In this document: positions 4,790 through 60,839 of the stretch, piece by piece
Layout of the letters: each line of letters opens with the position of its first letter
How positions within the stretch are numbered: position 1 is the stretch's first letter
DNA from: Octopus vulgaris
Lineage: Eukaryota
Direction: 5' to 3'
NCBI GenBank assembly: GCA_951406725.2
Contig: OX597839.1
Span: 14,446,001 to 14,510,000, forward strand
Length of the DNA: 64,000 nt
Program-made: the position numbers and the translations under genes
Notes under the pieces: generated by a model
Told to the model about the DNA's origin: nothing
Database searches by the model: none
Seen by the model: only the letters and a program-made list of their open reading frames with translations

Positions 4790-5275
4790 ACTTGAGAGCC
4801 ACTATGAATAGCAGTGGCTTCAAGACAGTGCTCTGTAGAACACTACTCATTATCTGTGTTTTCTTGAAGGTGACCCCATTGACCACCACTACCTAACTTC
4901 TAATTTTTGGAAAGTCATGTAGCAATTCTCCAAGTTTTCTAAATATACAAAGATTTCAGAGCTTGTGACAAATCATACCAAAGTCAATTTTGGGAAAGGC
5001 TTTTGCAAAGTCGAGGTATATCATGTCCACATTTGTTGTGCAGCTGTTTTAGCATCCAGTCGTAATGCTGCAAGATCTGTGTCAGGCAGCTTGTACCTGG
5101 TCAATAACCACGCTGAGTGTCAATCAGCAAGTCATTCTCTTCAAGAAATGCAATTAATTTCCTTCAGATTATTCGTTCCATGACTTTGCTGATGTATGAG
5201 GTCAGAGAGATAGGCATATAGTTTTTAGCATCTACTCTGCCTCCTCCTGTATGGACAGGGCATATTATTCCCTCC
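4790..5275 (-). mobile_element. CR1/L2/Jockey-type LINE RT relic (part left of the Gypsy insertion)
   Basis: Minus-strand translation GIICPVHTGGGRVDAKNYMPISLTSYISKVMERII and downstream DFAKAF-like motif. Continues at 9535-9760 across the Gypsy insertion. Confidence 0.75.
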
Positions 5276-5552
5276 TGTGGTGTGGTGATGAGGGAGTGTG
5301 ACAGAGAGGGAGGGAGCGGAAGTGGGTCTTGCAGGTCTCGCAGGGCGCATGCGCCGGCGGAAGCGGAAGTGAGAGACAGAACGCACGTGCGGCATCGACC
5401 AGGGCAGTCAGACTCGAGAACGACGCCAAGACGACAAGACGCTAGCAAGTTGGCTCAAGGCGAATCCGGCTTCATCTCTGCAGGTAAGACCAAATTACAC
5501 TTCTAATTCTTTTCCTTGTTCTGTTACGCTCCTTTTCACCACACTTATCACA
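5276..5552 (+). repeat. 5' LTR of element A
   Basis: Direct repeat of 9258-9534. One substitution seen (gaatccggc vs gaatctggc). Confidence 0.97.
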
Positions 5553-5605
5553 AGCTATTTTGGCAAAATAATCACTCGGTTTCGTGAAAATAAAAAATAA
5601 AAATT

Positions 5606-6361
5606 ATGCAGACTGCTATGATTTCACGCGACCCTATAAGACCGTTTTGCGGCGACACCGACGTGGTCGCTTGGTTGAGGAGGGTGAAGTTGGTGGCGAA
5701 GCTACACGGCATAGCTGACCTGGCTAGTTTTATGCCGTTGTATTTGGATGGCCCTGCGTTGGCGTTATATCTGGAGATGGAGGAAGCGGACCAATGCAGC
5801 GCGGACAAGGTGGAGATCCGACTTATGGAGGCCTTCGCGGAAGGAATGTTCGAAGCGTACACTCGACTGGGTAGGATGAGGTGGACAGGACAGCAGGTGG
5901 ACGTGTTCGCCGGCGAGCTTAGAAGGTTGGCAAAACTTGCGGGATATGAGGGAGAGTCGCTAGAACGCACGGTCAGGTTAGCGTTCGTGACTGGCTTTCC
6001 CGACATCATGTCGGTCGAGCTACAGAAGCTCCCGAACGTGCGTTCGATGCCGATGGCCGAGATTATATCGCGGGCGCGTGTACTGGTGTCGTGCAGCAGG
6101 TTGACGTCGGTAGCAGCGACTGCAACGTCGAAAAGTGGCCCAGCTAGGAGCAACGGAGAGGGGCTGGGGAAAGAACGCGTGCGGTCGTTTAAGGGACAGT
6201 GTTTCCGGTGCCAGGGCCCACACATGGTCCGTGACTGCGCGTCGCCCAAGCCCGAGGTGATTTGCTACCGGTGCCGAGAGCCGGGGCATGTGGCCAGCCA
6301 GTGTCTGCAGGGAAACGGACCGCGGGAGACTACTGCGCCGGTAGTTGTCCCTTTGGATTAG
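5606..6361 (+). CDS. gag: Gag of element A with two CCHC zinc knuckles (intact)
   Basis: 251-aa ORF containing CFRCQGPHMVRDC and CYRCREPGHVASQC. Confidence 0.92.
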   Translation: MQTAMISRDPIRPFCGDTDVVAWLRRVKLVAKLHGIADLASFMPLYLDGPALALYLEMEEADQCSADKVEIRLMEAFAEGMFEAYTRLGRMRWTGQQVDVFAGELRRLAKLAGYEGESLERTVRLAFVTGFPDIMSVELQKLPNVRSMPMAEIISRARVLVSCSRLTSVAATATSKSGPARSNGEGLGKERVRSFKGQCFRCQGPHMVRDCASPKPEVICYRCREPGHVASQCLQGNGPRETTAPVVVPLD

Positions 6362-6371
6362 TAGTGGCGCA
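6310..6371 (+). promoter_or_regulatory. -1 programmed ribosomal frameshift signal (G GGA AAC + H-type pseudoknot)
   Basis: Heptamer 6310-6316 in the gag frame. Stem GGGAGACTAC/GTAGTTGTCCC. Loop TGCGCC pairs with GGCGCA at 6366-6371. Confidence 0.8.
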
Positions 6372-9222
6372 TTTCTCATCGTTACCTGTGGTCGACATTC
6401 TGGTGAAGGGGAAGATGTCGCGAGCCCTGGTGGACACGGGCTGTACGACGACCCTGATGACCACAGAAGTGGCAGAGACGTGGAGTGGAGGAAGCAGTGT
6501 CAGGGCAGTCGACGGAAGAGAAGTGCACTGCGAAGGGGTTACGGATGCGCAGATCGTGGTGCAGGGACTGCAGCTGACGTTGCGAGCGATTGTGGTCGGT
6601 CACTTGGTGGACGAGATCGACGTGGTGATGGGGATGGATGCGATCACCCGTCTGGGAGGTGTTACCGTCAACGAGGCTGGCGTAACGTTTGGGCTAGCAG
6701 GGAAGCCGTGTAGGGCGACACCACGCACCGACGACAACCGTGAGGAAATGGATGCGGCGCACACCATTGAAGACCAGGATTTTCGGGCTGTCTTTGATGG
6801 CGAGAGGTGGACAGTGGAGTGGCACTGGAAGGGAGAGCCCCCGATGTTAAAGAACAAAGTGGGCTGCTATCAGCATACTCTAAAAGGAGATGCCAGAAGT
6901 GAGTTCGAGGGGGAGGTGGAGCGGTGGATTAAGGAGGGCATACTGATCCCCTGGGAAAAAGAAGAGAGCGGAGTCCTGCCACTGATGGCGGTGATACAGC
7001 CCACAAAGCGTAAGGTCAGGCCAGTGCTCGACTTCCGAGAGCTGAATGACCACGTGTCGTGTCATACAGGCGGCGAGGCCACGGATGTCTGCGGAGACAC
7101 CTTGCGAGAGTGGAGGCAGACGGCGGGGGCCTCCACGATTGTCGATTTAAAGTCGGCATACCTTCAGGTTCATGTGGCTGAGAAACTATGGAGGTACCAG
7201 CTCGTCAGGTATAGGGGCCGGACGTACTGTCTGACCAGGTTGGGATTCGGGCTGAATTCAGCTCCGAAGATTATGGCAACAATTCTCAAGGCCGTCCTAG
7301 GGAAGGTGGACAGAGTAAAAAGGGCCACCAATTCATACATCGACGACATTCTGGTGGATGAAACCGTGATACCAGCAACGGAGGTCATAGGCCACCTGAA
7401 GAGTTTTGGACTGATCGCCAAGCCGCCAGAGGCTATGGAGGGAGGTGCTGCACTGGGCCTCAAGCTATGGAGAGACAAAGCCGGCGCCTTGGTGTTCCGG
7501 CGAGGGAATGAGATCCCTGAACTGGGCGCCAGCATGAGTAGACGGGAGCTGTTCTCTGTGTGTGGGAAGCTGGTGGGACACTACCCGATTGCAGGCTGGC
7601 TCCGGACAGCATGCAGCTTCATCAAGAGATGAGCCGAAGGAGTGAAGTGGAATGATAAAGTGGGGGAGAGGACGATCGACATGATGCAGGAAGTCCTGGT
7701 CAGAGTAAGAGCAGAGGACCCGGTGAGGGGCAGCTGGTACGTTCCCAAATCAAAGAGCGGGATCGTATGGTGTGATGCCAGTAGCATCGCAATAGGGATT
7801 GTCTTGGAAGTGGGAGGTGTCACGGTGTAAGATGCAGCCTGGCTCAGGAAGATGGATGACTGCAGTCACATCAACGTGGCGGAGTTGGAAGCCGTGCTGA
7901 AGGGGGTGAACCTAGCCTTGAAGTGGGGGTTGCACACCATAGAAATCAGGACTGATTCAGCCACTGTACTTGGTTGGGTGACGGCAGTCATCACCGATGA
8001 GCGGAGGGTGCGGACCAAAGGGGCTGCAGAGATGCTGGTAAAGCGTTGATTGGGGATACTGCGTGAACTGACCACTGAGTTCAATCTGAAGCTGAGCGTG
8101 ATCTTTGTGCCTTCCGAGAAGAACAGGGCAGACGTCCTGACCAGGGTTAAGCGAGCCTGGTTGCAAGTGCCAGAGGACGCGAAGCAGGATGTAGCTGCAG
8201 TATGCCATCTGAGCGACTCGGAGTTGCGGAGACTGCACACCATGCATCACATGGGTGTGGACAGGACGTTGTTCCTGGCCAGAAAAGTCGACTCCGACGT
8301 AACAAGACAGAGCGTGCGGAGAGTGGTTAGCAGTTGTGACAGGTGCCAGTCCATCGACCCTGCTCCGGTCGTGCATGAAGCGGGAAGTATTCCAGTGGAC
8401 CAGGACTGGAGACGACTGGCGGTGGACATAACACACTACCGGCAGGGGACATACCTCTCAATGGTTGACTGCGGACCGGGGCGGTTCGCCATATGGAGGG
8501 AGATGAGGTCAGGAACCGCAGAAGAAATTGCGAAAGTGCTGAACGAGATATTCCTGGAACGAGGCCCCGTGGATGAACTGCTTCTGGACAACGGCACTGC
8601 ATTTCGCTCGGAGGCGCTGAGAGAAATGCTTGATGAGTGGAAGGTCAACCGCTTCTTCAGGGCGGCATACCGGCCAAGTGGAAACGGGGTGGTGGAAAGG
8701 CATCATCGTACCATCAAGGCCATGGCTGAGAGGGGTCACATTTCACCAGTCAAGGCCGTGTTTTGGTACAACATGTCGCCCAGATCAGGACAGGCCGAGG
8801 AGTCGGTGCCACACAGGGCAATATTCAGGTACGAGTGGAGGCATCCGTGTACTACATCAATGCGACCCGGGGCAGAGGAAGAGCACGCCTTCGTGCAGGT
8901 CGGGGAGGAAGTCTGGGTGAAACCCCCGAACGCACGGTGTACATCGCAATGGGGAAAGGGGACAATAACCTCCGTAAATTCAAAGAATAACATCTCGGTA
9001 GATGGTATGCCACGCCACGTTTTGGACATACGGAGGATTGTCCATGCCCCGGAGGATGGGACAAGCAACAGTGGGCAAGACGATAACAACAGACAGGATG
9101 ACGAGGTCGGCAGCAACACGCCAGAAACAAGTCCTAGGGTCGCACTGCGACCACAGAGGGAGCGGCACCCTCCTCCCTGGTTGGCTGACTACGAAACCAG
9201 TTTCAGGTGCGGGAGCGAGTGA
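6310..9222 (+). pseudogene. pol: Pol of element A (protease, RT, RNase H, integrase), -1 frame to gag, three in-frame nonsense codons
   Basis: Motifs ALVDTGC, RPVLDFRELN, YIDDIL, WCDASS, RTDS, HHCC zinc finger and D-D-E (AVDITH/LDNG/VERHH). Stops at 7630, 7828 and 8047 in one frame. Confidence 0.92.
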
Positions 9223-9257
9223 GGAAGCCGGTTCAGTGATCTATAGATCAGGGGGCG

Positions 9258-9534
9258 TGTGGTGTGGTGATGAGGGAGTGTGACAGAGAGGGAGGGAGCG
9301 GAAGTGGGTCTTGCAGGTCTCGCAGGGCGCATGCGCCGGCGGAAGCGGAAGTGAGAGACAGAACGCACGTGCGGCATCGACCAGGGCAGTCAGACTCGAG
9401 AACGACGCCAAGACGACAAGACGCTAGCAAGTTGGCTCAAGGCGAATCTGGCTTCATCTCTGCAGGTAAGACCAAATTACACTTCTAATTCTTTTCCTTG
9501 TTCTGTTACGCTCCTTTTCACCACACTTATCACA
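9258..9534 (+). repeat. 3' LTR of element A
   Basis: Direct repeat of 5276-5552. Confidence 0.97.
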
Positions 9535-9879
9535 CCTCCTTTAGTTTGTCCAGGAGCTTACCATTTGTGAGGAAGCTATGAAAAAGTATCTGCAATGGTT
9601 TTGTAAGGACTCATTTGCCTGACTTGAGGAGGGTTGCTAGGAATCCATCAGGGTCAGCAGCTGAGTTTGCGTTATATCCTTTTCTTCGATGTTGATGTAA
9701 TCAATTCTTACTTCCCCCCATTCAGCTTCTGTAGCAGTAAAGAATTGTATAGGTTTGTGCATATAAACTTCTGATCTATGGTCTTTAGTATTTCAGTCTT
9801 CAAATTTATTATTCAGTCTGCAAATTTTAGTTTGTTGGTCCCATTCCTTTTAGACAATGTTTCAGGTTTTACCAGTAGG

Positions 9880-16744: not shown

Positions 16745-17822
16745 TTTTTTCGCTGTTATTGTTGCGTTTGTGGTGTGAGTTTCCTTTTGGGATATATTTC
16801 TATCTGTAGTGGGGTTTTTGGTGCTTGTGGTACTTCAGTTGATGATTGTGGTGCTGCAGGAGTTGTCTGAGTTTCTGCATTTGTTGTGAGTGCGTGTGTA
16901 GTTTCTTTGTTATCTTGTTTTGGTGCAGGACAAGATGTTTCACCTCTATGACTTCTTTTTTGGATTTTTGGAATTACTCTGTTCCCCCTCCTCATCACTT
17001 TTCAATGTGATAGAACCAGTGTCTGTTGTAACCTCCTCCTCTCTGTGTGGAAGCGAATTCGTGTTTGTATGTGTATCTTTTTCTGTGTGTTTGTTTGAGA
17101 GAGAGAGATAGAAGGTGTTGTTGGACTTGATTGCAAGCTGTTGGTTTTTGTGGTTGACCTCAATGACGGTTTTCCTGCTGGTGCTATTGTTATGCCTGCA
17201 ACCACCGCCACTGTTGTTGCTATTTTTGCTGCTTTCCATGTTGTTGGTGGTGCTGATCTTTCTACAGCTGGTGCTGTTTTTTGCTTTCCCAGTCTTGGTG
17301 TTGATGTCAGCGGAGGTCTACAGACCTGTGTACTTATTTGCTGAGGGCAGAGTGCTTGTAGGTGTGTTGTTTCACCACAAGCAAAGCAATATGGCCTTCT
17401 GCCCTCAGAGATCGGGGTAACTTGAGGCGGACATGATCTGGGATATTCTCCAAGCCTTGTGGTTTTATTTGGACTAGCATTTCCTAATCCATCCTAACCC
17501 AGTCTTCTCTTTGCGCCCATTGGACTTTTAGGAGGAGGGTGTTGATTCCCTCCACGATCATGCATCTGACGAGGCACCATACGCTGATACCTGGTGTTAT
17601 TCTGGCGACTCGAACTTTCATTATTCTTCTACCTGTGTAGGACGGGAATATAATGAGCTGGTCAGTTTTGTGAGGTCCCACCAAATGCTTAATGGCCAGC
17701 TCTTCTGCTTTAAAAAGTACAGAGATGGCATCAAAACTTGAGGCCCTTTGAATGAATATGACATCCTCTCTGATTGATCTCACTTGAAGGTGGGAGGGTT
17801 GTTCTGCTCTCTGAGACTGCAC
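16745..17822 (-). mobile_element. Degraded LINE ORF1/gag-like relic with CCHC knuckle (L1/Tx1-like)
   Basis: Minus-strand EGRRPYCFACGETTHLQALCP near 17340-17405, followed by a low-complexity K/T/Q-rich region. Frames broken. Confidence 0.55.
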
Positions 17823-18753: not shown

Positions 18754-19235
18754 CTGCAATGGAAGTGACATTAACTTTTGAGAAGTAGTGGTAGTAGTGG
18801 TGGGGTTTGTGGTGGTGGTGGGGGTTGTGGTGGTGGTGGTGGGGGAGTAGTACTAGTGGGTAGTGGAAAGAATGGAAGTGGTGATGGTGGTGACGGTGGA
18901 GGTGGTAGTGGTGGTGGTAGTAGTAGTAATAGTAGTTAGGTAGGGAAGTAGGGTTAGTGGTGGTGATGGGGAGTAGCAGCAGTCAGTAGTGGTGAGAGTA
19001 GTAGTGATGGTGACGACGGTGTTGGTGGTAGTGGTGGTGTTTCTCAAAACTGTGAGACTGTTGCAGAATAACAATATTATTCACTGGAAATGTAAGCTCG
19101 ACAACAATGTCCTGTTTTATTGTCTTTCCTTAATGTGTGTGTGTTTGTGTGTGTGCATGCATGTGTGTGTGCATGTAGGTGGGATTCATGCAAAGAAGTA
19201 GAAATGACTTCATGCTTACACATAAATGCACACAT

Positions 19236-28977: not shown

Positions 28978-29261
28978 TTAATTGTGATGACTGTTTAAAG
29001 TGTTAAATGAAGCGAATGAAAGAAAAGTGTAGAAGAGAGAAATAGAGAGAATAATAAGGGAAAATTGTAGACGTAGTTTTGGGGAGGTGTTTGCTGGGCC
29101 ATTGCAGTAGTCTTTGTTGCAGATGGAAGCAGCAACCACTGCTCCCTTTCTGCGTGCATACACAGTGATGTTGGTCTCAGCATTAAGGTGCTTCATCTTG
29201 GGATTGTTAGCAATTGTCATGCTTCCATTGCTACAGTGTCTGCTGAATATGTTTGTTTTAC
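28978..29261 (-). CDS. Three-finger protein 2, coding exon 3
   Basis: ttccag| acceptor, phase 1. GKTNIFSRHCSNG...ASICNKDYCNGPANTS followed by a hydrophobic tail. Paralogous to 14720-14985. Confidence 0.85.
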
Positions 29262-29469
29262 CTGGAATATCAAAGGTGGAAAGCATTTTGTAAAAGATTG
29301 ACAATGTTAAATAAAAATAGACTGTCCATAACATAATTACACAACTACATACATGCATGCATACATACGTATATACATGCATACCCACACACATACATAC
29401 ATACATATATACATACATACATACATACATATACATACATATACAAACATACATACATAATACATTATG

Positions 29470-29668
29470 GCTACCTCCTCGTTATCGAGTATGGCCATTG
29501 CACGAAGCTTAGCTGTTACTGGTTCTGTGATCGAATGTGACTTTTTAGCCCAGCTAAAGATCTACAATGTCTTGTACAGAATTGGCAACTAAAACCTTTA
29601 CCGGTAATAGCTGGCTGTAGTTGTAACTGGGCTTCATGTATCTTTGCATGTCGTTTAAGTCCTCCTGC
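29470..29668 (-). mobile_element. 3' end of an RTE/BovB-type LINE (C2H2-like C-terminus)
   Basis: FSCQFCTRHCRSLAGLKSHIRS, then stop, short UTR and a tetranucleotide tail. Confidence 0.6.
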
Positions 29669-30489
29669 ATACATACATACATACATATGTACATACAAAA
29701 CCTTGAAATGCTAGGTTTTTTTGAAGAAAGTGCAAAAGAAACTGATGTGGATTCCTCAAATCCAATCTATTAATGGCACAGGGAAGATTTGTAAGACTTT
29801 CCAAAGATTCTCAGTCTTGAGATTCTTTAGGTGAATACACACACACACTTGAGTGTAGGCATCGACAGTTCGAGCAACACTCCAACTCAACCACATATTT
29901 ACAAACATCAGGAACTCTCGTAATTCAGAAAGGCTTGTTGCTTTGTTAGTGATCTCTCAAGAAGAACCTAAATTAAACTCAAAGAAAAGCATCCATTCAT
30001 ACATACTTACGTCTTCATCCATATGCATCACACACCTAAACCAATGTCGTCTTTTCTTTTGCAAGCTGCCTCTAATTTCGTTCATGTCCAACTTTTCTCT
30101 CAGCACATTTGCACCTTGTCATACATGTACACTGATGTTGCACATCCTTCAAAGCATTCCAACTTCATTCCTCCCAAGTCTATGCATGTTGTCTTCATTT
30201 AGGGCCCATATCTCACTACCTTGGAGCATAACTGTTCATACATAAGCATCATGCAATCTACCTTTCACTCTCAGAGAGAGAGAGGCCATTGCAAATATAC
30301 AATGCCTTCTTTCAGTTTCCATCTCTGAAATCCACTCACAAAGCTTTGGTTGACTCAGGGCTATAGTGAAAAGACACTGGCTCAAGTTGCCAAGCAGTGG
30401 GACTGAACCCAAGACCACATTATTAAAAAACTGGCTTATTACCATCCAGCCATCCATGTGTCTATTATACCTTAAAAAGAAAGATATTA

Positions 30490-31267
30490 GGATCTTTTCC
30501 TTTTGAACGGCAGTTTTCAACACAATTTCTAGTTAACTAAACACTTTTAAACTTCATATACTGGTAGAATGTGTCAAAATAAAACATTTTTTCTCTTGGC
30601 TTTCTTGAGAAAATTGTAATTTGTAAGTTTAACGTAGTTTAATTTTTCGAATTTTAACCAATCAATTGCCTCTATTGAGCTAAAATCATTTGCTGCGTCT
30701 AAAACTGAGACAACATCCTGTCACTAACCCTAAAACTAGCCCCTGTCACTAACCCTAACACTAACCCTAACACTAACACTAACCCTAAATTTTAGCCTTT
30801 CGTTTTTTTTTTCTTAATTGTTAAATTAATTTAATTGTTACGCGTGTGTCTAAAATTATTTGTTTTGTTTTTGTTTTGAGATACACGAGTATTGTTTAAA
30901 CTATTTTCCATTGCTTAAGAAAAAAAAAAATGAAAGGCTAAAACGAAAGCAATGGAAAATAATTTAAACAATTAACAAACAAAATGATTCTATAATTTTA
31001 TACACACGCTCTCTGAACATAAACATAAAAGTGACAGGATGTTGTCTCAGTTTTAGACGCAGCAAATGATTTTAGCTCAATAGAGGCGATAGGATTGGTT
31101 AAAATTCAAAAAATTAAACTACGTTAAACTTACAAATTACAATTTTCTCAAGAAAGCCATGAGAAAAAAATGTTTTATTTTGACACATTCTACCAGTATA
31201 TGAAGTTTAAAAGTGTTTAGTTAACTAGAAATTGTGTTGAAAACTGCCGTTCAAAAGGAAAAGATCC
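30490..31267. mobile_element. Non-autonomous DNA transposon (MITE) with ~235-bp TIRs, 8-bp TSD and internal telomere-like repeats
   Basis: TIR ggatcttttccttttgaacggcagtttt..., TSD AGATATTA (30482-30489 and 31268-31275), CCCTAA/CACTAA array at ~30722-30788. Confidence 0.9.
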
Positions 31268-31342
31268 AGATATTAATAAATTGAAGAAGGTAGTATTTGA
31301 AAGATTTCAATTTTCCTTGTTTAGTAAAGCTAACAGCCTTAC

Positions 31343-33269: not shown

Positions 33270-35915
33270 TAGCAGTGAATTGCCAGGTACCAGAGCAATG
33301 ATCTCATCTTTGTGACTGGAGATTTCAATGGGTATGTCGGACGGCAACCTGGTATCTTCCATGGTGTCCATAGGAGCCAGGGAATAGGTGCCCCCGAAAT
33401 GAAGAATGTGCAAGGCTATTGGAGTTCTGTGATGCAAATAACCCATTGATCTGCAACACCGACATCAGGAAGACAACCAACCACTTAATAACTTCCCAAT
33501 CAGGTGACTGTGATAGCCAGATCGATTACATTCTCACCAGACAGCAGGATGCATGGTTGCTCTTAAATACAAAGACCCTCCCTGGTGAAGAATGTACTCC
33601 CCAGCACAGAGTAGTCATTAGTGATTTTAGACTCCAGCCAGAAGGATGCCAAGAAGCAGACCAATCTAGAAAAGACGGATTTGGAAGTTTAAAGAGGACC
33701 AATAAACTGAAGTGTTTTGGATTGCAAGACATTGTGTAAGAGAAAATCGTGATGTCATAGGAAAGAAATGTGTCTGCATGGATGATGGTGCACTTGCATT
33801 TAATGATTCTGCAAAGGAAGAGACTTGGAAATGCCTTTATGGAAGACTGTTGAATATGGAGAATGAATGGGAGGAGAAGAGTCTACCAAATGTTGACCCA
33901 ATTGAGAGACCAGCTATCCAAATCAACAGTACCTTGGTAGATAAAGCAATTAAGGATATGAAGACAGGGAAAGTCCCTGGCCCATCAGGAATCACTGCTG
34001 AGATGCTTAAAATATCTGGTGGTGTGGGTTATGGTCTAGTCACTTGTATTTTAAATCAGATGGTTCACGAAGGAGTCATACCCAATGACTGGTGTAGCAG
34101 CACAGGTCAACTGCTACAAAGGTAAAAGTGATGCCTTAGATAGAAATAATTACAGAGTTATCAAATTGTTGGATCAGGTGATGAAAGCTATGGAGAAAGT
34201 CATAGCCCAACTAATCAGGGAGATAGTTAACCTAGATGAAATGCAGTTTGGTGAGGAAGAAACACTAATGGTGCTATATTTCTGTTATGGCAGCTGCAGG
34301 AGAAATAAATAGCCAAAGATAAACCTCTGTACTTGGCCTTTGTTGACTTGGAGAAAGCCTTTGATAGGATCCCCTGATCCCTTATCTGGTGGTCACTGTA
34401 AATTAGGGATAGACAAGTAGTTGGTGAAAGCTGTACAAGCTATGTACAGGGATGCTTGCTACCAGTTAAGTGAGGGTTGGCAATGAGTACAGAGAAGAAT
34501 TCAGAGTACAAGTTGGGGTTCACCAGGGATCAGTGCTCAGCTTCCTCTTGTTCATCATAGTTCTCCTGGCAATAACAGAGGAATTCAAGACAGGCTGCCT
34601 CTGGGAGCTCCTCTATGCTGATAACCTTGCTCTTATAGCTAAATCACTACCAGAACTAGAGAAGTTCCACGTTTGGAAGCAGGGTCTAAAGTCGAAGGGC
34701 TTTAGAGTTAACCTAGCAAAAATCAAAGTCTTAGGAAGTAGGAAGGCAGACAAACCACAAATTCCTTCAGGTAGATGGCCATGCTCAATGTGTAGAAAAG
34801 GCATAGGTAGAAACTCCATAAGATACATCCAGTTTAAGCTTTGGACCCATAAAAGGTGCAGCAATATCAGAGGAAGGTTAACAGGAAAACTAGTTTTTGT
34901 ATGTGGAAGATGCACAGGTACAATAAATGCTGAAAATATGTAGAAAATATACTCCATCCACTGCCAGAGGGGCAAGCTAGAGATAATAGATAGTTTCTGT
35001 TATCTAGGTGACCAAGTTAGTAGTGGAGGTGGATTCTTTGAGAGCATAGCTGTGAGAAGATTAGGCTAGGCAAAATTCAGAGAGCTCCTACCACTCTTGG
35101 CAACAAAAGGCCACTCTCTCAGAGTGAAAGGCAGATTGTATGATGCCTTCATGCAAACAGCTATGCTACATGCATAGCTTGAAAGAAATGAAACCAGTAT
35201 GTTTCACTGGATGTGCAATGTCAGTGTGTATATTCGACAGTGTAAGCATCTTGAGAGAAAGTTAGGCTTAAGAGGCATGAGATATGGTGTGCAAGAGAGA
35301 TGACTGCACTGGTATGGTCATGTGATGTGTATGGACAAGGACAGCTGCGTAAAGAAGTGCTGATCTCTAACTATGGAGGGAACCTGTGGTAGAGGTAGAC
35401 ACGGGATGAGGTGGTGAAGCATGATCTTTAAACTTTGAGCCTCACAGAAGCTATGACTAGTGACGGAGACCTTTGGCAATATGCTGTGCTTGAAAGGACC
35501 TGTCAAGCCAAGTAAAACTATAGTCATGGCCTGATGCTGGAGTCACATAACTGGTATCCAAGCTGGTGGCATGTAAAGAACAACTTTTGTGTGTTGGGTT
35601 TCATGGAGGCAAAGTAGCTGAGTTTCTTTTGAGTGTTGGGTCTCATGGAGGCAATGAGCAAGACCTTTGCCATTATGTCATGCTTGAGAAGAAGACCCAT
35701 CAAGCCGAGCAAAATTACAGTCGTGGCAGATACTGGTGCCATGCAAATGGCACCTGTGCTGGTGACATGTAAAAGCACCAGTTACTCTCTCTAGGAAAGG
35801 CATCTAGCCATAGAAAACCATGCCAAATCAGACTGGAGTCTGGTGCAGCTTTCCAGTATGCCAACCCCGCTCAAACTGTTCACCCTATTCCAGCATAGAC
35901 AACAGACATTAAATG
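33270..35915 (+). mobile_element. Degraded RTE-clade LINE (endonuclease C-part, RT, 3' UTR)
   Basis: SQIDYIL and QHRVVISD (APE endonuclease), GKVPGPSGI, NYRVIKLL, GVHQGSVLS, LLYADNL. Many stops. Confidence 0.9.
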
Positions 35916-36289: not shown

Positions 36290-36740
36290 TATATATAATA
36301 TTATTAGAGACAAAACCACTATTTTGCAAATCAAACAAGGAAATAATCAATACATAAAAAATTTTAATATAAAGTAAATAAATCGCCACTACAATTGTTT
36401 CCTGTCTTCAAATGACATTCATCAGGTGGATTTCATATCTAAAAATATCAATATTTAAAAATTTTTTAAATTTAAAAATTTTATATAGATTATATATTTT
36501 TATATATTTTCATTGATAAATTTATATTATTTATAGTTTTAGCCATTTTAAATTTATTTATTTAAAAAAATTTTTAAATATTGATATTTTTAGATATGAA
36601 ATCCACCTGATGAATGTCATTTGAAGACAGGAAACAATTGTAGTGGCGATTTATTTACTTTATATTAAAATTTTTTATGTATTGATTATTTCCTTGTTTG
36701 ATTTGCAAAATAGTGGTTTTGTCTCTAATAATATTATATA
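36290..36740. repeat. ~450-bp palindrome with near-perfect ~175-bp arms
   Basis: The arm starting tattattagagacaaaaccactattttgc is mirrored by the arm ending gcaaaatagtggttttgtctctaataata. AT-rich spacer. Confidence 0.92.
36603..36646 (+). ncRNA. Candidate minimal hammerhead ribozyme (mirror copy at 36386-36429 on minus)
   Basis: ccac CTGATGA atgtc atttgaa gacag GAAA caatt GTA gtgg. Stem I ccac/gtgg, stem II tgtc/gaca, palindromic ACAATTGT stem III, GUA site at 36640-36642. Confidence 0.7.
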
Positions 36741-55768: not shown

Positions 55769-56934
55769 CTGAAAAGAAACAGAATATGAAATAACAGTGA
55801 AGGTAAGCTGAATAGGTTGGAGGTCATTTATGCTTTGTTTGTAACTCTAACCCTAAGTGAGAAGACCAATGACGAAAGTATTCCAGTGATTGGTTGTACA
55901 AGCTACATCATTGATATTGAATGGTACTTATTTTATCGATCCCAAATTATGAAAAGCAAAGTTGACCTCAGTGGAATTTGAACTCAGAAAGTGAAGACAG
56001 ACATGTAAGCATAGAAAGTGGATGTAAGAGGATGATGATGTATGTAGGTATTTATATATGTATATTATTCACACACACTCACACACATATATACACACAC
56101 ACACACACACACAGACATGTATGTATACACATATACACACACACACACAGACATGTATGTATACACATATACATACACAGACATGTATGTATACACATAT
56201 ATGTACACATGTATATATGTATAGACATATATATATACACACAAATGTGTATATCAGTGCAGACATTATATATATTCATATATATATATATATATACATA
56301 CATACAATTAGGTTATGGGCATGAAACGTACGTAGTGGTTTTACTTTTTATCTTATATTAACTTTTTAATACTTTTTGATAGTTATATATATATATATTA
56401 AATAAATAAATAAAATAAAATAAAAATATATATATATATAAAAAAATATAAAAATTTATAAATGTTTCTTTTCAGATATCATCAGAAAAAGGTAATTAAA
56501 ATTCATTAAAATGACAGATCTGTTGGACTTTCCAAGAGGTCAAATTTTTGGTGCTTGTATTGTCTCAATGGTCCTGTGGGTAAAGACATACAGACATATC
56601 AACACATATACACCTTGGACAAAGGATCAGTAGTGAGTGCGCGATTTGAATATAGAGGCACCTACCTTCTCTTCTTAGTGACGGAGACCCTCCAGTAATG
56701 ACTAGTCCTTCCTCATAGCCCCGACCCGAACACTAACGATAGCAGCTGCTAGCCCAAACCCATAGCGACGTCCTCACACGTCTTGTCACCTGCACGACCC
56801 ACGTTGGAAAGGGCGCAATTTCCGCTCTCTGCGCATGCCTGACAGCTGACCCCTTTCCCTTGCCCCAGCTTCCGGTCAACGCACCCGGCTGCTGACGTCC
56901 AGCTGCTGACATCATCCCACACGCCACCCTGATC

Positions 56935-59748
56935 TTAAAGATCACAATCTCTCCGCTCCATGTTGTAGTCCACCATCCAACCGGGAGAACGCCTTGCTCG
57001 TCGAGATCTTCTCAAGCTGGGCTCCTTGTTCTTCCCCTCTCCAGAATCATCGTCCGTCGAAGCAACAATCCTGCGAAGGTCCAAGATGTGTCGTGGTGTT
57101 CCATCTACGGATACGTTGCTTCTGGAATTGATCGCCGTCACCGTTCCTCTGCTCCATTGAGACGTACAGCGCGCCTTTGGTGCCTTGACCCAGACTTCCT
57201 CCCCTATTTTCACGCGAACGGGTCCCTTCTCTTCCTTGTGACCCTCCGGCGCTTTGCTCGGGTGCCTCCATTCATATTTGAACACAGCTCTCTGCGGCAC
57301 AGATTCCTCAGTTTGTCCGGATCGGGGAGACAAGTTGTACCAAAATACTGCTTCAAGCGGCGAAATGTGCCCTCTTTCCGCTATGGCCTTGACTGTCCGA
57401 TGGTGCCTCTCCACGATCCCGTTACCGCTCGGCCTATACGCTGCTTTGAACAAGCGTCGCACATTCCACCGATCAAGCATAACCCTCAATGCTTCCGAAC
57501 AAAACGCCGCCCCGTTGTCCATCAGTAGTTCTTCCATGGGACCTCTCTCTAAAAATATCCCGTTCAGGATCTGCACGATCTCGTCAGCAATGCCCGATCT
57601 CAACTCCCTCCAAATGGCCAGCCGGCCTGGCCCACAGTCGACCATGGAGAGGTACATTCGCTGACGGTAGTGTGTCACATCCACAGCTAGCCTTTTCCAG
57701 TTCTGCTCTACGGAAAGGCTTCCCTGTTCATGCCCACACGGAGCAGGGTCGATGGACTGACACCTGTCGCAGCTCCCGACCACCTTCTGGACGCTTCTCC
57801 TAGTGACGTCAGCATCAATTTTTTTTGCCAGATACAGGGTCCTGTCCACACCCAGGTGATGCATAGCATGCAGTTTCTTCAGTTCAGAGTCATCCAACCA
57901 ACACGCCGCAGCTATCCCTTTCCGGGCCTCCTCCGGTTCTTCCAACCACGCTCTTTTCACCCTGGTCAGTACGTCCGCCCTGTTTTTCTCCGAAGGCACG
58001 AAAACCACGTTCAGCTTCAGTCCGAATTCGGCGACCAATTCACCTAGAACTCCTAGACGGCACTTCACTAACATCTCCGCAGCACCTTTCGTCCGCACTC
58101 TCCTGTCACCGGTGATCACCGATCCTACCAAGCCCAAGTTCCACCCTTTCAGCAGCGCGTCTAATTTGGTGACATTGATGTGGTTGAAATCATCTGCTTT
58201 CTGAAGCCAGGCCGCGTCCTCCACCGCAGTGCCTTCGATTGCCAACACCACCCCTATCGCTATACTGCTAGCATCACACCAGACGGTCCCGCATTTCATC
58301 TTGGGCACGTACCAGTTCCCCCTGACTGGGTCTTCCGCTCTTGTCCTCTCTAGGATCTCCTGCATCATCGCCACCGTCCCTTCTCCCACCTTGTCGCCCC
58401 ACCTCTCTCCTTCTGCTCGTCTCTTGGTGTAACTACACGCCGTGCGCAGCCATCCAGCGATCGGGTAGTGACCGACCAACTTCCCACACACCGAGAACAG
58501 CTCTCTCCTGCTGACGCTGGAACTCAGCTCTGGGATTTCATTTCCTCTCCGGAACACCAATTCACCTGATTCATCTCTTCGCAGCTTCAGCCCCAGCGCG
58601 GCTCCCCCTTCAATCGACTCCGGTGGCTTAGCAATCAGTCCGAACTTCTCCAGATGTCTAACTACCTCGTTGGCTGGCACTACAGTTTCGTCCACCAAAA
58701 TGTCGTCAATGTAGGAGCTGGTGGCCTTTCTAATCTTGCCATCTTTCCCTAGGACCGATCTAAGCACTGCTGCCATGATCTTCGGAGCGGAATTCAGCCC
58801 GAAACCCAGCCTGGTTAGACAGTACGTCCGGCCCTTGTACCGCACCAGCTGATATCGCCACAGTTTGTCGCTCACATGGAGCTGCAAGTATGCCGATCTC
58901 AAGTCGACAATCGTCACTGCCTCAGTCGACTGTCTCCACTTACGTAATGCCTCACCACAAACGTCTGTCGCCTCACCTCCCGTGTGACACGATATGTGCT
59001 GGTTTAGCTCCCTGAAGTCCAGCACCGGTCTGACTTTTCCCTTCGTAGGCTGCACCACCGCCATCAGGGGTAGCACTCCGCCCGCTACCTCCTCCTTCCA
59101 AGGGACAAGGACCCCTTCCTCGATCCACCTCTCCACCTCGTCTTCAAACTCGACCCTGGCGTGGCCTTTCAGGGTATGCTGGTAACAGCTCACCCTGTTC
59201 TCCAGCGTCGGGGGCTTGTCCTTCCATCGCCACTCTATCGTCCACCGCTGACCATCGAACGCCGCCTGAAAGTCTTTGTCCTCGATGGTGTAAGCGGCGC
59301 AGTCCCTCGCGGAGCTCTGCTCTCTCTGGCGATCCTGACTCGCAGTGCACGACGCCCCCACGCTTCCGAACGTGATCTCATTTCCCACAACACTGACGCC
59401 ACCGAGGCAGTTGATGGCGTACATCCCCATCACCACATCAACTCCATCTATCACGCGTTCGGCCACAATTGCCTGCAGCCTTAGCGTCGCGCCGCGCACC
59501 ACTATCTCTACCTTGCTGCTGCCTCTGCAATGGATTTCGCTGCCGTCGACCGCCCGGACACTACTCACCCCGTTCCATTCCTTCGTCACCCTCGAAGTCA
59601 CCAGGGTGGTCGTACAGCCCGTATCCACAAGGGCCTTGAACGTCTCCCCCTCAGCCTCCATGTCAATCAATGGCAGCGTCTCCAATAGCGCCTCTACTCG
59701 TTTGAGGGGATAGTTCGAGAGGCAGCAACTTCCCCGCGGTCGTTTCCC
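56935..59748 (-). CDS. pol: Pol of element B (PR-RT-RH-IN), open frame but ~19-aa deletion in RNase H
   Basis: 940-aa ORF with ALVDTGC, YIDDIL, WCDASS and integrase DDE. Lacks the ALKWG...RTDSATVL segment present in A. Confidence 0.88.
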   Translation of the reverse strand, partial: GKRPRGSCCLSNYPLKRVEALLETLPLIDMEAEGETFKALVDTGCTTTLVTSRVTKEWNGVSSVRAVDGSEIHCRGSSKVEIVVRGATLRLQAIVAERVIDGVDVVMGMYAINCLGGVSVVGNEITFGSVGASCTASQDRQREQSSARDCAAYTIEDKDFQAAFDGQRWTIEWRWKDKPPTLENRVSCYQHTLKGHARVEFEDEVERWIEEGVLVPWKEEVAGGVLPLMAVVQPTKGKVRPVLDFRELNQHISCHTGGEATDVCGEALRKWRQSTEAVTIVDLRSAYLQLHVSDKLWRYQLVRYKGRTYCLTRLGFGLNSAPKIMAAVLRSVLGKDGKIRKATSSYIDDILVDETVVPANEVVRHLEKFGLIAKPPESIEGGAALGLKLRRDESGELVFRRGNEIPELSSSVSRRELFSVCGKLVGHYPIAGWLRTACSYTKRRAEGERWGDKVGEGTVAMMQEILERTRAEDPVRGNWYVPKMKCGTVWCDASSIAIGVVLAIEGTAVEDAAWLQKADDFNHINVTKLDALLKGWNLGLVGSVITGDRRVRTKGAAEMLVKCRLGVLGELVAEFGLKLNVVFVPSEKNRADVLTRVKRAWLEEPEEARKGIAAACWLDDSELKKLHAMHHLGVDRTLYLAKKIDADVTRRSVQKVVGSCDRCQSIDPAPCGHEQGSLSVEQNWKRLAVDVTHYRQRMYLSMVDCGPGRLAIWRELRSGIADEIVQILNGIFLERGPMEELLMDNGAAFCSEALRVMLDRWNVRRLFKAAYRPSGNGIVERHHRTVKAIAERGHISPLEAVFWYNLSPRSGQTEESVPQRAVFKYEWRHPSKAPEGHKEEKGPVRVKIGEEVWVKAPKARCTSQWSRGTVTAINSRSNVSVDGTPRHILDLRRIVASTDDDSGEGKNKEPSLRRSRRARRSPGWMVDYNMERRDCDL

Positions 59749-60459
59749 TGGTCGCAATCACGGGCAATGTGCCCTGTCTGCCTGCATCGATAGCAAACGG
59801 GCCCCGGCTGCGTACAGTCCCGTGCCATGTGCGGTCCCTGGCATCTAAAACACCGTCCTGAGAACGGCCGCTCTCGTTGCACGGTGAGCTTCTGTACCTC
59901 TTTCTCGGGACGTCGTCCGTCTTTACGCGCCTCCATCACCGCCATCGCTATCGCCTTCCGCCCAGAGTGTCTCGTCAACACGCGAGCCTGAGCTACAAGT
60001 TCGCTCAACAGGCATCATTTTAACCCCGGGCAGTCATTGTAGGTGAATCCCTACATCGTCGGGGAACCCATTCACGAACGCCAGTCAGGCTGCTCTCTCC
60101 AGTCCTTCTCCGGCAAACCCGGCCAGAGTCGCTAGCCTTCTAACTTCTGATGCAAAGTCGTCCACTTGGCCTCCCGTCCACCTGATTGCACCTAGCTTAG
60201 CAAAAGCTGTGTACTCGCATTCCGTGTAGGCGTCACGCAAGCGTCGCTCTATATTCTCCTTGCTGAGCCGTTCCTCTTCATCCATCTCTAGGTAGAGCGT
60301 CAACACGCTCCCTTCCAAATACAGCGCCATAAGACTCGCCACGTCGCTTATGCCCTGCAGTCTTGCCACCAGCCTGATTTTGCGAATCCAGGCCACTACA
60401 TCGCCTTCGCCATTAAAAGGTCTGACGACGTCACTGGCGATCCTAATTTTTGCAGACAT
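59694..60459 (-). pseudogene. gag: Gag of element B, disrupted (stop at 60085 and frameshift)
   Basis: Two ORF pieces homologous to gag of A, with knuckles CFRCQGPHMARDC and CYRCRQTGHIARDC. Confidence 0.88.
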
Positions 60460-60839
60460 CGTGTTGAAAAAAATGTAAATGTTTAAGAACAGCCGAATTA
60501 GCTTGTAGTGGGTGCGCGAGTTGAATATAGAGGCACCTACCTTCTCTTCTTAGTGACGGAGACCCTCCAGTGATGACTAGTCCTTCCTCACAGCCCCGAC
60601 CCGAACACTAACGATAGCAGCTGCTAGCCCAAACCTTTAGCGACGTCCTCACACGTCTTGTCACCTGCACGACCCACGTTGGAAAGGGCGCAATTCCCCG
60701 CTCCCTGCGCACGCCTGACGGCTGACCCCTTCCGGTTGCCCCAGCTTCCGGTCAACGCACCCGGCTGCTGATGTCCAGCTGCTGACGTCATCCCACAGGA
60801 TCAGTCTTGGCCCATACTGATTGTTTTTTTTTCTTTTGT

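Follow-up and report, generated by a model that had tools for sequence, protein, structure and literature searches.

Two compact LTR retrotransposons of Octopus vulgaris with a putative primer-binding site for the first twelve nucleotides of a host tRNA

What primes minus-strand synthesis in an LTR retrotransposon whose 5' LTR is not followed by a TGG-starting primer-binding site (PBS)? Two elements in a stretch of Octopus vulgaris DNA raise this question. The stretch, here called the window, comprises 64,000 nt of contig OX597839.1 (14,446,001-14,510,000, forward strand), and all coordinates below are positions within it. Sequence comparison points to an answer that we hold with a probability of about 0.75: the 12 bases after the 5' LTR are likely a PBS for a 12-nt piece cut from the 5' end of a host tRNA. 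What the sequences show is the position of the site, its exact length, its conservation, and its switching among tRNA 5' ends.

Layout of the two elements

The window contains two compact LTR elements, A at 5276-9534 on the plus strand and B at 60797-56629 on the minus strand. Direct terminal repeats with TG...CA ends, a target site duplication (TSD), a gag, and a pol with a DDE integrase identify them as LTR retrotransposons. Their features are as follows.

5271-5275, plus: 5' TSD of element A, CCTCC; second copy at 9535-9539
5276-5552, plus: 5' LTR of A, TG...CA, 277 nt; 100% identical to 9258-9534
5553-5564, plus: predicted PBS of A, complement of tRNA-Phe nt 1-12 with one G-U pair
5606-6361, plus: gag of A, with a CCHC zinc knuckle
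6235-9222, plus: pol of A, PR-RT-thumb/DUF7047-RNase H-IN; in a different frame, overlapping the end of gag
9237-9257, plus: hairpin of A (9237-9250), then G5 and 2 nt, a short PPT-like tract
9258-9534, plus: 3' LTR of A, identical to the 5' LTR
60504-60797, minus: 5' LTR of B, TG...CA; TSD GATCC at 60802-60798
60492-60503, minus: predicted PBS of B, complement of tRNA-Phe nt 1-12 with one mismatch
59698-60459, minus: gag of B, broken by an in-frame stop near 60085 and a frame change; 3' end approximate
56935-59757, minus: pol of B, a 940-aa open frame, PR-RT-thumb/DUF7047-RNase H-IN
56922-56944, minus: hairpin of B and short PPT-like tract
56629-56921, minus: 3' LTR of B, 94.5% identical to the 5' LTR; TSD at 56628-56624

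The pol frame of A is interrupted between 7630 and 8050. In the B copy the RNase H motif is partly degenerate, and the 3' LTR terminates in CT. The 12-mers are AGCTATTTTGGC in A (5553-5564) and AGCTAATTCGGC in B (60503-60492, minus), and each adjoins the CA of its 5' LTR. A first-pass annotation of this DNA had placed them there, with one G-U wobble to tRNA-Phe in A and one mismatch in B, and both placements and both deviations are confirmed. The same annotation held that the LTRs of A and B share little sequence; by blastn the two elements are indeed similar in gag and pol only, and their LTRs are unrelated. In the whole window, only these two sites lie within one mismatch of the motif. An Rfam search of the window gave no matches.

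Both 5' LTRs also contain a splice-donor-like AG|GTA(A/G)G (5480-5490 in A; about 60545-60535 in B), about 40-70 nt upstream of the site. Enrichment of such donors upstream of the site in relatives was considered and rejected (13/36 against 13.5 expected).

Elsewhere in the window there are two MITE-like elements with long terminal inverted repeats (30484-31273, 109 nt at 98%; 36292-36740, 192 nt at 97%) and a LINE-type RT fragment with QGS and YAD motifs (34470-34943, plus). A minus-strand frame at 17002-17493 has a CCHC-like motif (CX2CX4HX4C) and no Pfam match, and is perhaps a decayed retroelement gag. Two further minus-strand frames are a Thr/Pro-rich repeat frame (18780-19040) and one that ends in a Cys-rich CNKDYCN stretch and a hydrophobic tail (28978-29481), which we take to resemble a Ly6-type exon.

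The site and tRNA 5' ends in the host and in distant relatives

The 5' end of host tRNA-Phe(GAA) is the complement of the motif, as the first-pass annotation had given it for metazoans. It has 97 genomic matches against 0 for a reversed control, and ARAGORN called tRNA-Phe at 5/6 loci bearing this 5' end. About 48 tRNA-Phe genes form a tandem array with a 200-bp period at G000:C18:30147710-30157146. Genome-wide, an LTR end followed by the motif has 271 exact matches against 3 for the reversed pattern, so that the motif does not follow LTR ends by chance.

The host family was collected by a gag search in which 150 of 656 candidates were scored. Ninety of these 150 were examined, namely the top 30 and 60 lower-ranked copies down to 52% gag identity. 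The commonest motif is the perfect complement of tRNA-Phe, found in 66 of the 90 copies and in 29 of the best 30 gag matches; 20 copies have one mismatch, three have two, and one has three. The single deviations of A and B are copy-level variants. CA directly precedes the site in 89/89 copies within two mismatches, and every site position from 1 to 12 is conserved in 84-89 of these copies. Position 13 varies freely (A46 G11 C19 T13), and there is no pairing between tRNA nt 13-14 and the LTR bases upstream of the site. The match thus spans exactly mature tRNA nt 12 to nt 1. That it ends at nt 1 had been claimed for A and B; the host copies show sharp edges at both nt 1 and nt 12. The reversed motif occurs with at most two mismatches in 1/90 copies. 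The duplex energy with the tRNA 5' end is -18.7 kcal/mol for a perfect site, -16.6 for A, and -14.8 for B.

The absence of a TGG-starting PBS, also claimed for both elements, holds for A, B, and the family loci inspected: no TGG-type site for 3'-CCA priming was found near their LTR ends. Host Gypsy controls, selected by PF17917, have TGG 0-2 nt from the LTR end in 20/20 loci, which represent a handful of families and were judged by eye. The position of the minus-strand primer sets the LTR end. Since no TGG site takes its place, we read the 12-mer as the PBS.

The comparison extends beyond the host. A metagenome scan gave 67 loci with 34-55% pol identity, 42 of which hold the gag start with upstream sequence. 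All 42 have a 12-mer starting with AGCTA or CGCTA within 350 nt, a count in which the calling pattern required these letters and some loci are near-duplicates. CA stands directly before such sites in 39/41 (a separate tally). The family's 12-mer has related counterparts at the same place outside the host. Exact complements of a verified tRNA 5' end make up 32/42 sites (three Phe types, two Lys, one Met); the comparison draws on ends verified in the octopus, in archaeal genomes, and in contigs of bacterial assemblies rather than host by host.

Among the 32 exact sites, the host-type Phe end accounts for eight. Two other Phe variants, which differ where tRNA nt 5-6 pair, account for 11 and nine. 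tRNAs starting with either variant gave 55 matches, 54 of them tRNA-Phe(GAA) and one truncated, with a search pattern that had a Phe-like D-loop and was built after the variants were seen. Both variant ends were verified only in archaeal genomes (mostly Thermoplasmata) and in contigs of bacterial assemblies, some of which we infer to be eukaryotic contaminants. On one bacterial-assembly contig, probably such a contaminant, seven tRNA-Phe copies (L225-L229, L240, L241) repeat with a 3738-bp period.

Lys accounts for three exact sites. One is the complement of the host tRNA-Lys(CUU) 5' end (31 host matches; 8/8 loci called Lys), and two correspond to a Lys 5' end with A at nt 7 that was found in one host gene only. 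The single Met site, in locus L148, matches the 5' end of the host intron-containing tRNA-Met (43 matches; 3/6 loci called Met). Here site position 1 is changed so as to pair with tRNA-Met nt 12, and a tRNA-Met search that left one pattern position free found G in 43/43 host matches, as the L148 site predicts; this one element is the evidence for pairing at nt 12 by a changed base. The other ten of the 42 sites lack an exact verified host-type match: six are one base off, one matches a phage tRNA-Met only, and three are seemingly shifted. L117, L145, L146, L142, and L136 have a site seemingly shifted by one base or no verified host-type end. Shifted or unmatched sites may point to other tRNAs or to a primer of 11 nt.

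A quick tree of RT-RNase H (52 rows) has Lys-type sites in two starred groups that are separate from each other, and host-type Phe sites appear at three or more places in it. Among the 150 scored host candidates, no Lys-type family exceeds 52% identity to L140. Switching among tRNA 5' ends argues against a match to the 3' end of another RNA. The comparisons support a pairing rule of tRNA nt 1-12 across the clade, with Phe as the partner in the octopus and Lys or Met in some relatives. Priming by a 12-nt tRNA-Phe piece, as originally proposed for A and B, is supported by position and length and by the Lys and Met relatives, but its restriction to Phe is not; the rule is nt 1-12.

Named homologues come from Petrolisthes, Argonauta, Oratosquilla, Macrosteles, Hydra, and Octopus sinensis. 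The top Atlas cluster is eukaryotic and includes a few euglenozoan records, which serve as a lead only. No pol relatives were found in viral contigs, where tRNA 5' ends are mostly Thr and uninformative on hosts. Trypanosomatid supplementary sequences gave no match to the variant elements, and a sequencing-run search for them listed one soil metagenome and no RNA dataset. In 36 metagenome loci, AATAAA or ATTAAA occurs near the LTR end, within 130 nt upstream of the site, 17 times against 4.2 expected, which may suggest a short U5.

How the site might be used

Over site positions 6-12 the sequence is that of the tRNA's own acceptor 3' strand, which annealing would therefore displace. In the mechanism we propose, the element RNA would invade the acceptor stem by strand displacement, probably with help from Gag, and the 5' strand of the D-stem would be opened as well. 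The tRNA would be cut after nt 12, within the D-stem, since priming needs a 3'-OH at this nucleotide. RT would extend the primer into U5, fixing the LTR end at the adjacent CA. Our preference for the nuclease, held at somewhat less than even odds, is the element's own RNase H, which by analogy with Tf1 could cut at the duplex edge. Its four acidic positions are kept in 48-50 of 50 clade proteins.

The same 12-nt piece could come from a ready-made fragment, produced by a host nuclease as a D-loop 5'-tRF and trimmed to the duplex edge. Such fragments exist. Cut tRNAs are, moreover, described as primers in the available text on Copia-type half-tRNA priming (PMC6317226, PMC10886601). This sub-case of the main reading nevertheless appears less likely than a cut by the element. 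That the end stays at nt 12 whether the tRNA is Phe, Lys, or Met, and in distant lineages alike, better fits a rule set by the element, and Tf1 is a precedent of similar length.

Plus-strand synthesis would likely start from a G-rich tract of 7-8 nt bounded by a conserved hairpin. Of 60 loci that retain the integrase C-terminus, 39 (30 non-redundant) have a G-run call before the 3' LTR and 21 have none. The tract consists of G5-7 adjoining the hairpin, as in A (9237-9257), B (56944-56922), and many metagenome loci (L098-L161). In 27 of the 30 non-redundant calls the G run abuts the end of a stem of 4 bp or more, compared with 16% in shuffles, and in 25 of 30 this stem has 5 bp or more, compared with 5%. 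The hairpin arm sequences covary between families; the three loci without a stem look like miscalls. Together the G run and spacer mostly measure 7-8 nt, of which 1-3 nt separate the G run from the LTR.

The spacer bears on where the primer ends. The tRNA might pair through nt 1-12 but act as a primer only up to nt 10; the first two bases of the site would then be copied and trimmed by integrase. In retroviruses the site is usually separated from the CA by 2 nt, and the distance of 1-3 nt that most calls show between G run and 3' LTR is expected if integrase trims the other end; the spacer may reflect such trimming of 2 nt, in which case the primer would end at nt 10. However, site positions 1 and 2 are conserved (89/89 and 86/89 host copies), and position 1 changes with the tRNA in L148. 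We regard a primer ending at nt 10 as quite improbable.

A primer ending at nt 12 could also be had from an uncut tRNA that pairs through nt 1-12 and primes from a 2'-OH through a branched intermediate, as retrons do. This would make a nuclease unnecessary, and sequence data cannot separate it from a cut. We know of no LTR element that primes from a 2'-OH, though; nt 12 is U in some cases and G in another, and the fold class of the RT is LTR/retroviral, all of which leaves this route with a small chance. Smaller still is the chance that priming occurs otherwise and that tRNA fragments target the site for regulation or packaging, or that the site is a Pol III A-box in antisense. Five of its 12 bases equal the complement of the tRNA A-box start, but the remaining A-box is missing, the acceptor-stem part is equally conserved, and the site adjoins the LTR end with no TGG site in its stead. 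Self-priming by the element's own 5' end, suggested by a 12-nt site and zero spacer like those of Tf1, is rejected, since no complement of the site in the LTR exceeds shuffle level (best 7/12 in A and in B, in line with the first-pass annotation, and 6-10/12 in 37 loci with a perfect site) and the site is common to A and B although their LTRs are unrelated.

Classification and comparison with known systems

The first-pass annotation called both elements Gypsy, a label that is not established. The clade has the domain order PR-RT-RH-IN of Ty3/Gypsy, an order also given for BEL, Troyka, and retroviruses in the available text of PMC12440569. A GPY/F motif in the integrase C-terminus was found in 0/50 clade proteins and in 3/5 of the Gypsy control frames listed. 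Gypsy-type RNase H (PF17917/PF17919) had no match in the pol proteins scanned, nor, by eye, among the rows listed; the clade RNase H has weak RVT_3/RNase_H matches. Against this stand neighbouring Atlas clusters with PF17917 on 12-30% of members. The clade RT scores a median of 33 bits against four host Gypsy RTs, which score 184 among themselves. In an RT tree, 14 clade rows lie on one side (98*, stem 2.29), outside the four host Gypsy rows; the tree has a LINE root and carries a long-branch warning, and it was built without BEL, DIRS, retroviral, or chromoviral rows, host Copia and BEL copies being too decayed to include.

In a predicted structure (mean pLDDT 76), DUF7047 corresponds to helices after the palm (417-474), which we read as the thumb. 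In this model RNase H appears to follow the thumb helices directly, with no tether of the kind found between RT and RNase H in Retroviridae, Odin, or lokiretrovirus. Structure searches matched PR, RT, RNase H, and IN folds at 10-18% identity and do not give the element class. The BEL/Pao domain PF05380 was found in no clade pol; the host has only two decayed matches, neither in the window. The clade is possibly an unclassified LTR lineage marked by DUF7047. We do not file the elements as Gypsy, and sampling is too thin for a placement of the clade to be established.

Conservation of a site for tRNA nt 1-12 throughout a deep clade, with changes of partner among Phe, Lys, and Met, points to a fourth type of LTR primer. 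Very short 5' tRNA fragments thereby gain a specific candidate function, and such a primer is a plausible halfway stage between tRNA priming and the self-priming of Tf1. Pipelines that consider tRNA 3' ends only, as the available text of PMC13524379 and PMC4558846 indicates for theirs, would score such elements as lacking a PBS. The prediction is sharp and open to in vitro test. Taken together, the findings allow a wider conjecture, with the odds against it: an unrecognised superfamily-level LTR lineage of animals, and probably protists, whose RNase H would cut the tRNA after nt 12, a fourth priming mode that bridges tRNA priming and Tf1 self-priming and is accompanied by a minimal, hairpin-bounded PPT.

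Three primers of LTR elements are listed in a plant survey (PMC6317226): the 3' end of a tRNA, a half-tRNA produced by a cut at the anticodon, and a self-primer. PMC10886601 describes only 3'-end and anticodon-loop priming; both statements refer to the text available. In the literature covered there is no report of a tRNA nt 1-12 site or of DUF7047; Repbase Reports and most subscription journals lay outside its scope, and prior notice is possible. The portions available of PMC6934838, PMC4558846, PMC13524379, PMC7472051, PMC3587641, PMC5445492, and PMC6238403 contain no such site. The motif AGCTATTTCGGC does occur in tRNA-modification literature, as far as the text is accessible.

Canonical Ty3/Gypsy elements (Metaviridae, including the host PF17917 elements) share with the present clade TG...CA LTRs, a 5-bp TSD, a CCHC gag, and PR-RT-RH-IN order. 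They differ in the TGG site of all 20 controls, whereas no TGG site, GPY/F, or PF17917/PF17919 was found in the clade proteins and loci covered. Oikopleura Tor elements are said to use a spliced-leader primer, and Troyka reportedly has an internal tRNA site. The words PBS and tRNA are absent from PMC12440569, the description of Troyka (Kojima 2025). Troyka resembles the clade, in the accessible part of that paper, in being compact, once filed as Gypsy, and without tether or GPY/F; its CG...CG ends, 3-bp TSD, and CX2CX8-10HX4C contrast with TG...CA, 5 bp, and CX2CX4HX4C here. On this partial description, termini and TSD exclude membership in Troyka.

The closest likenesses lie in two systems that prime from a cut RNA. 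Tf1 primes with a short piece cut from the 5' end of its mRNA, and RNase H cleaves an RNA duplex, the latter according to a title cited in PMC4600332, of which part was available. As in Tf1, Tj1, and sushi, a short site here pairs with the extreme 5' end of an RNA that needs a cut. The RNA in those elements is their own mRNA, whereas here it would be a host tRNA acting in trans, and there is no self-complement. Half-tRNA priming is tied to the Copia superfamily (Drosophila copia, Ty5, Osser, Bryco, Bianca, and fungal Helenus) in the available text of PMC6317226 and PMC10886601. As described there, the primer is likewise the 5' piece of a cleaved tRNA, and the site likewise does not start with TGG. 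The cut in Copia elements, however, lies in the anticodon stem or loop, where the site pairs, whereas the present elements, with their PR-RT-RH-IN order, pair with nt 1-12, which would imply a cut in the D-stem.
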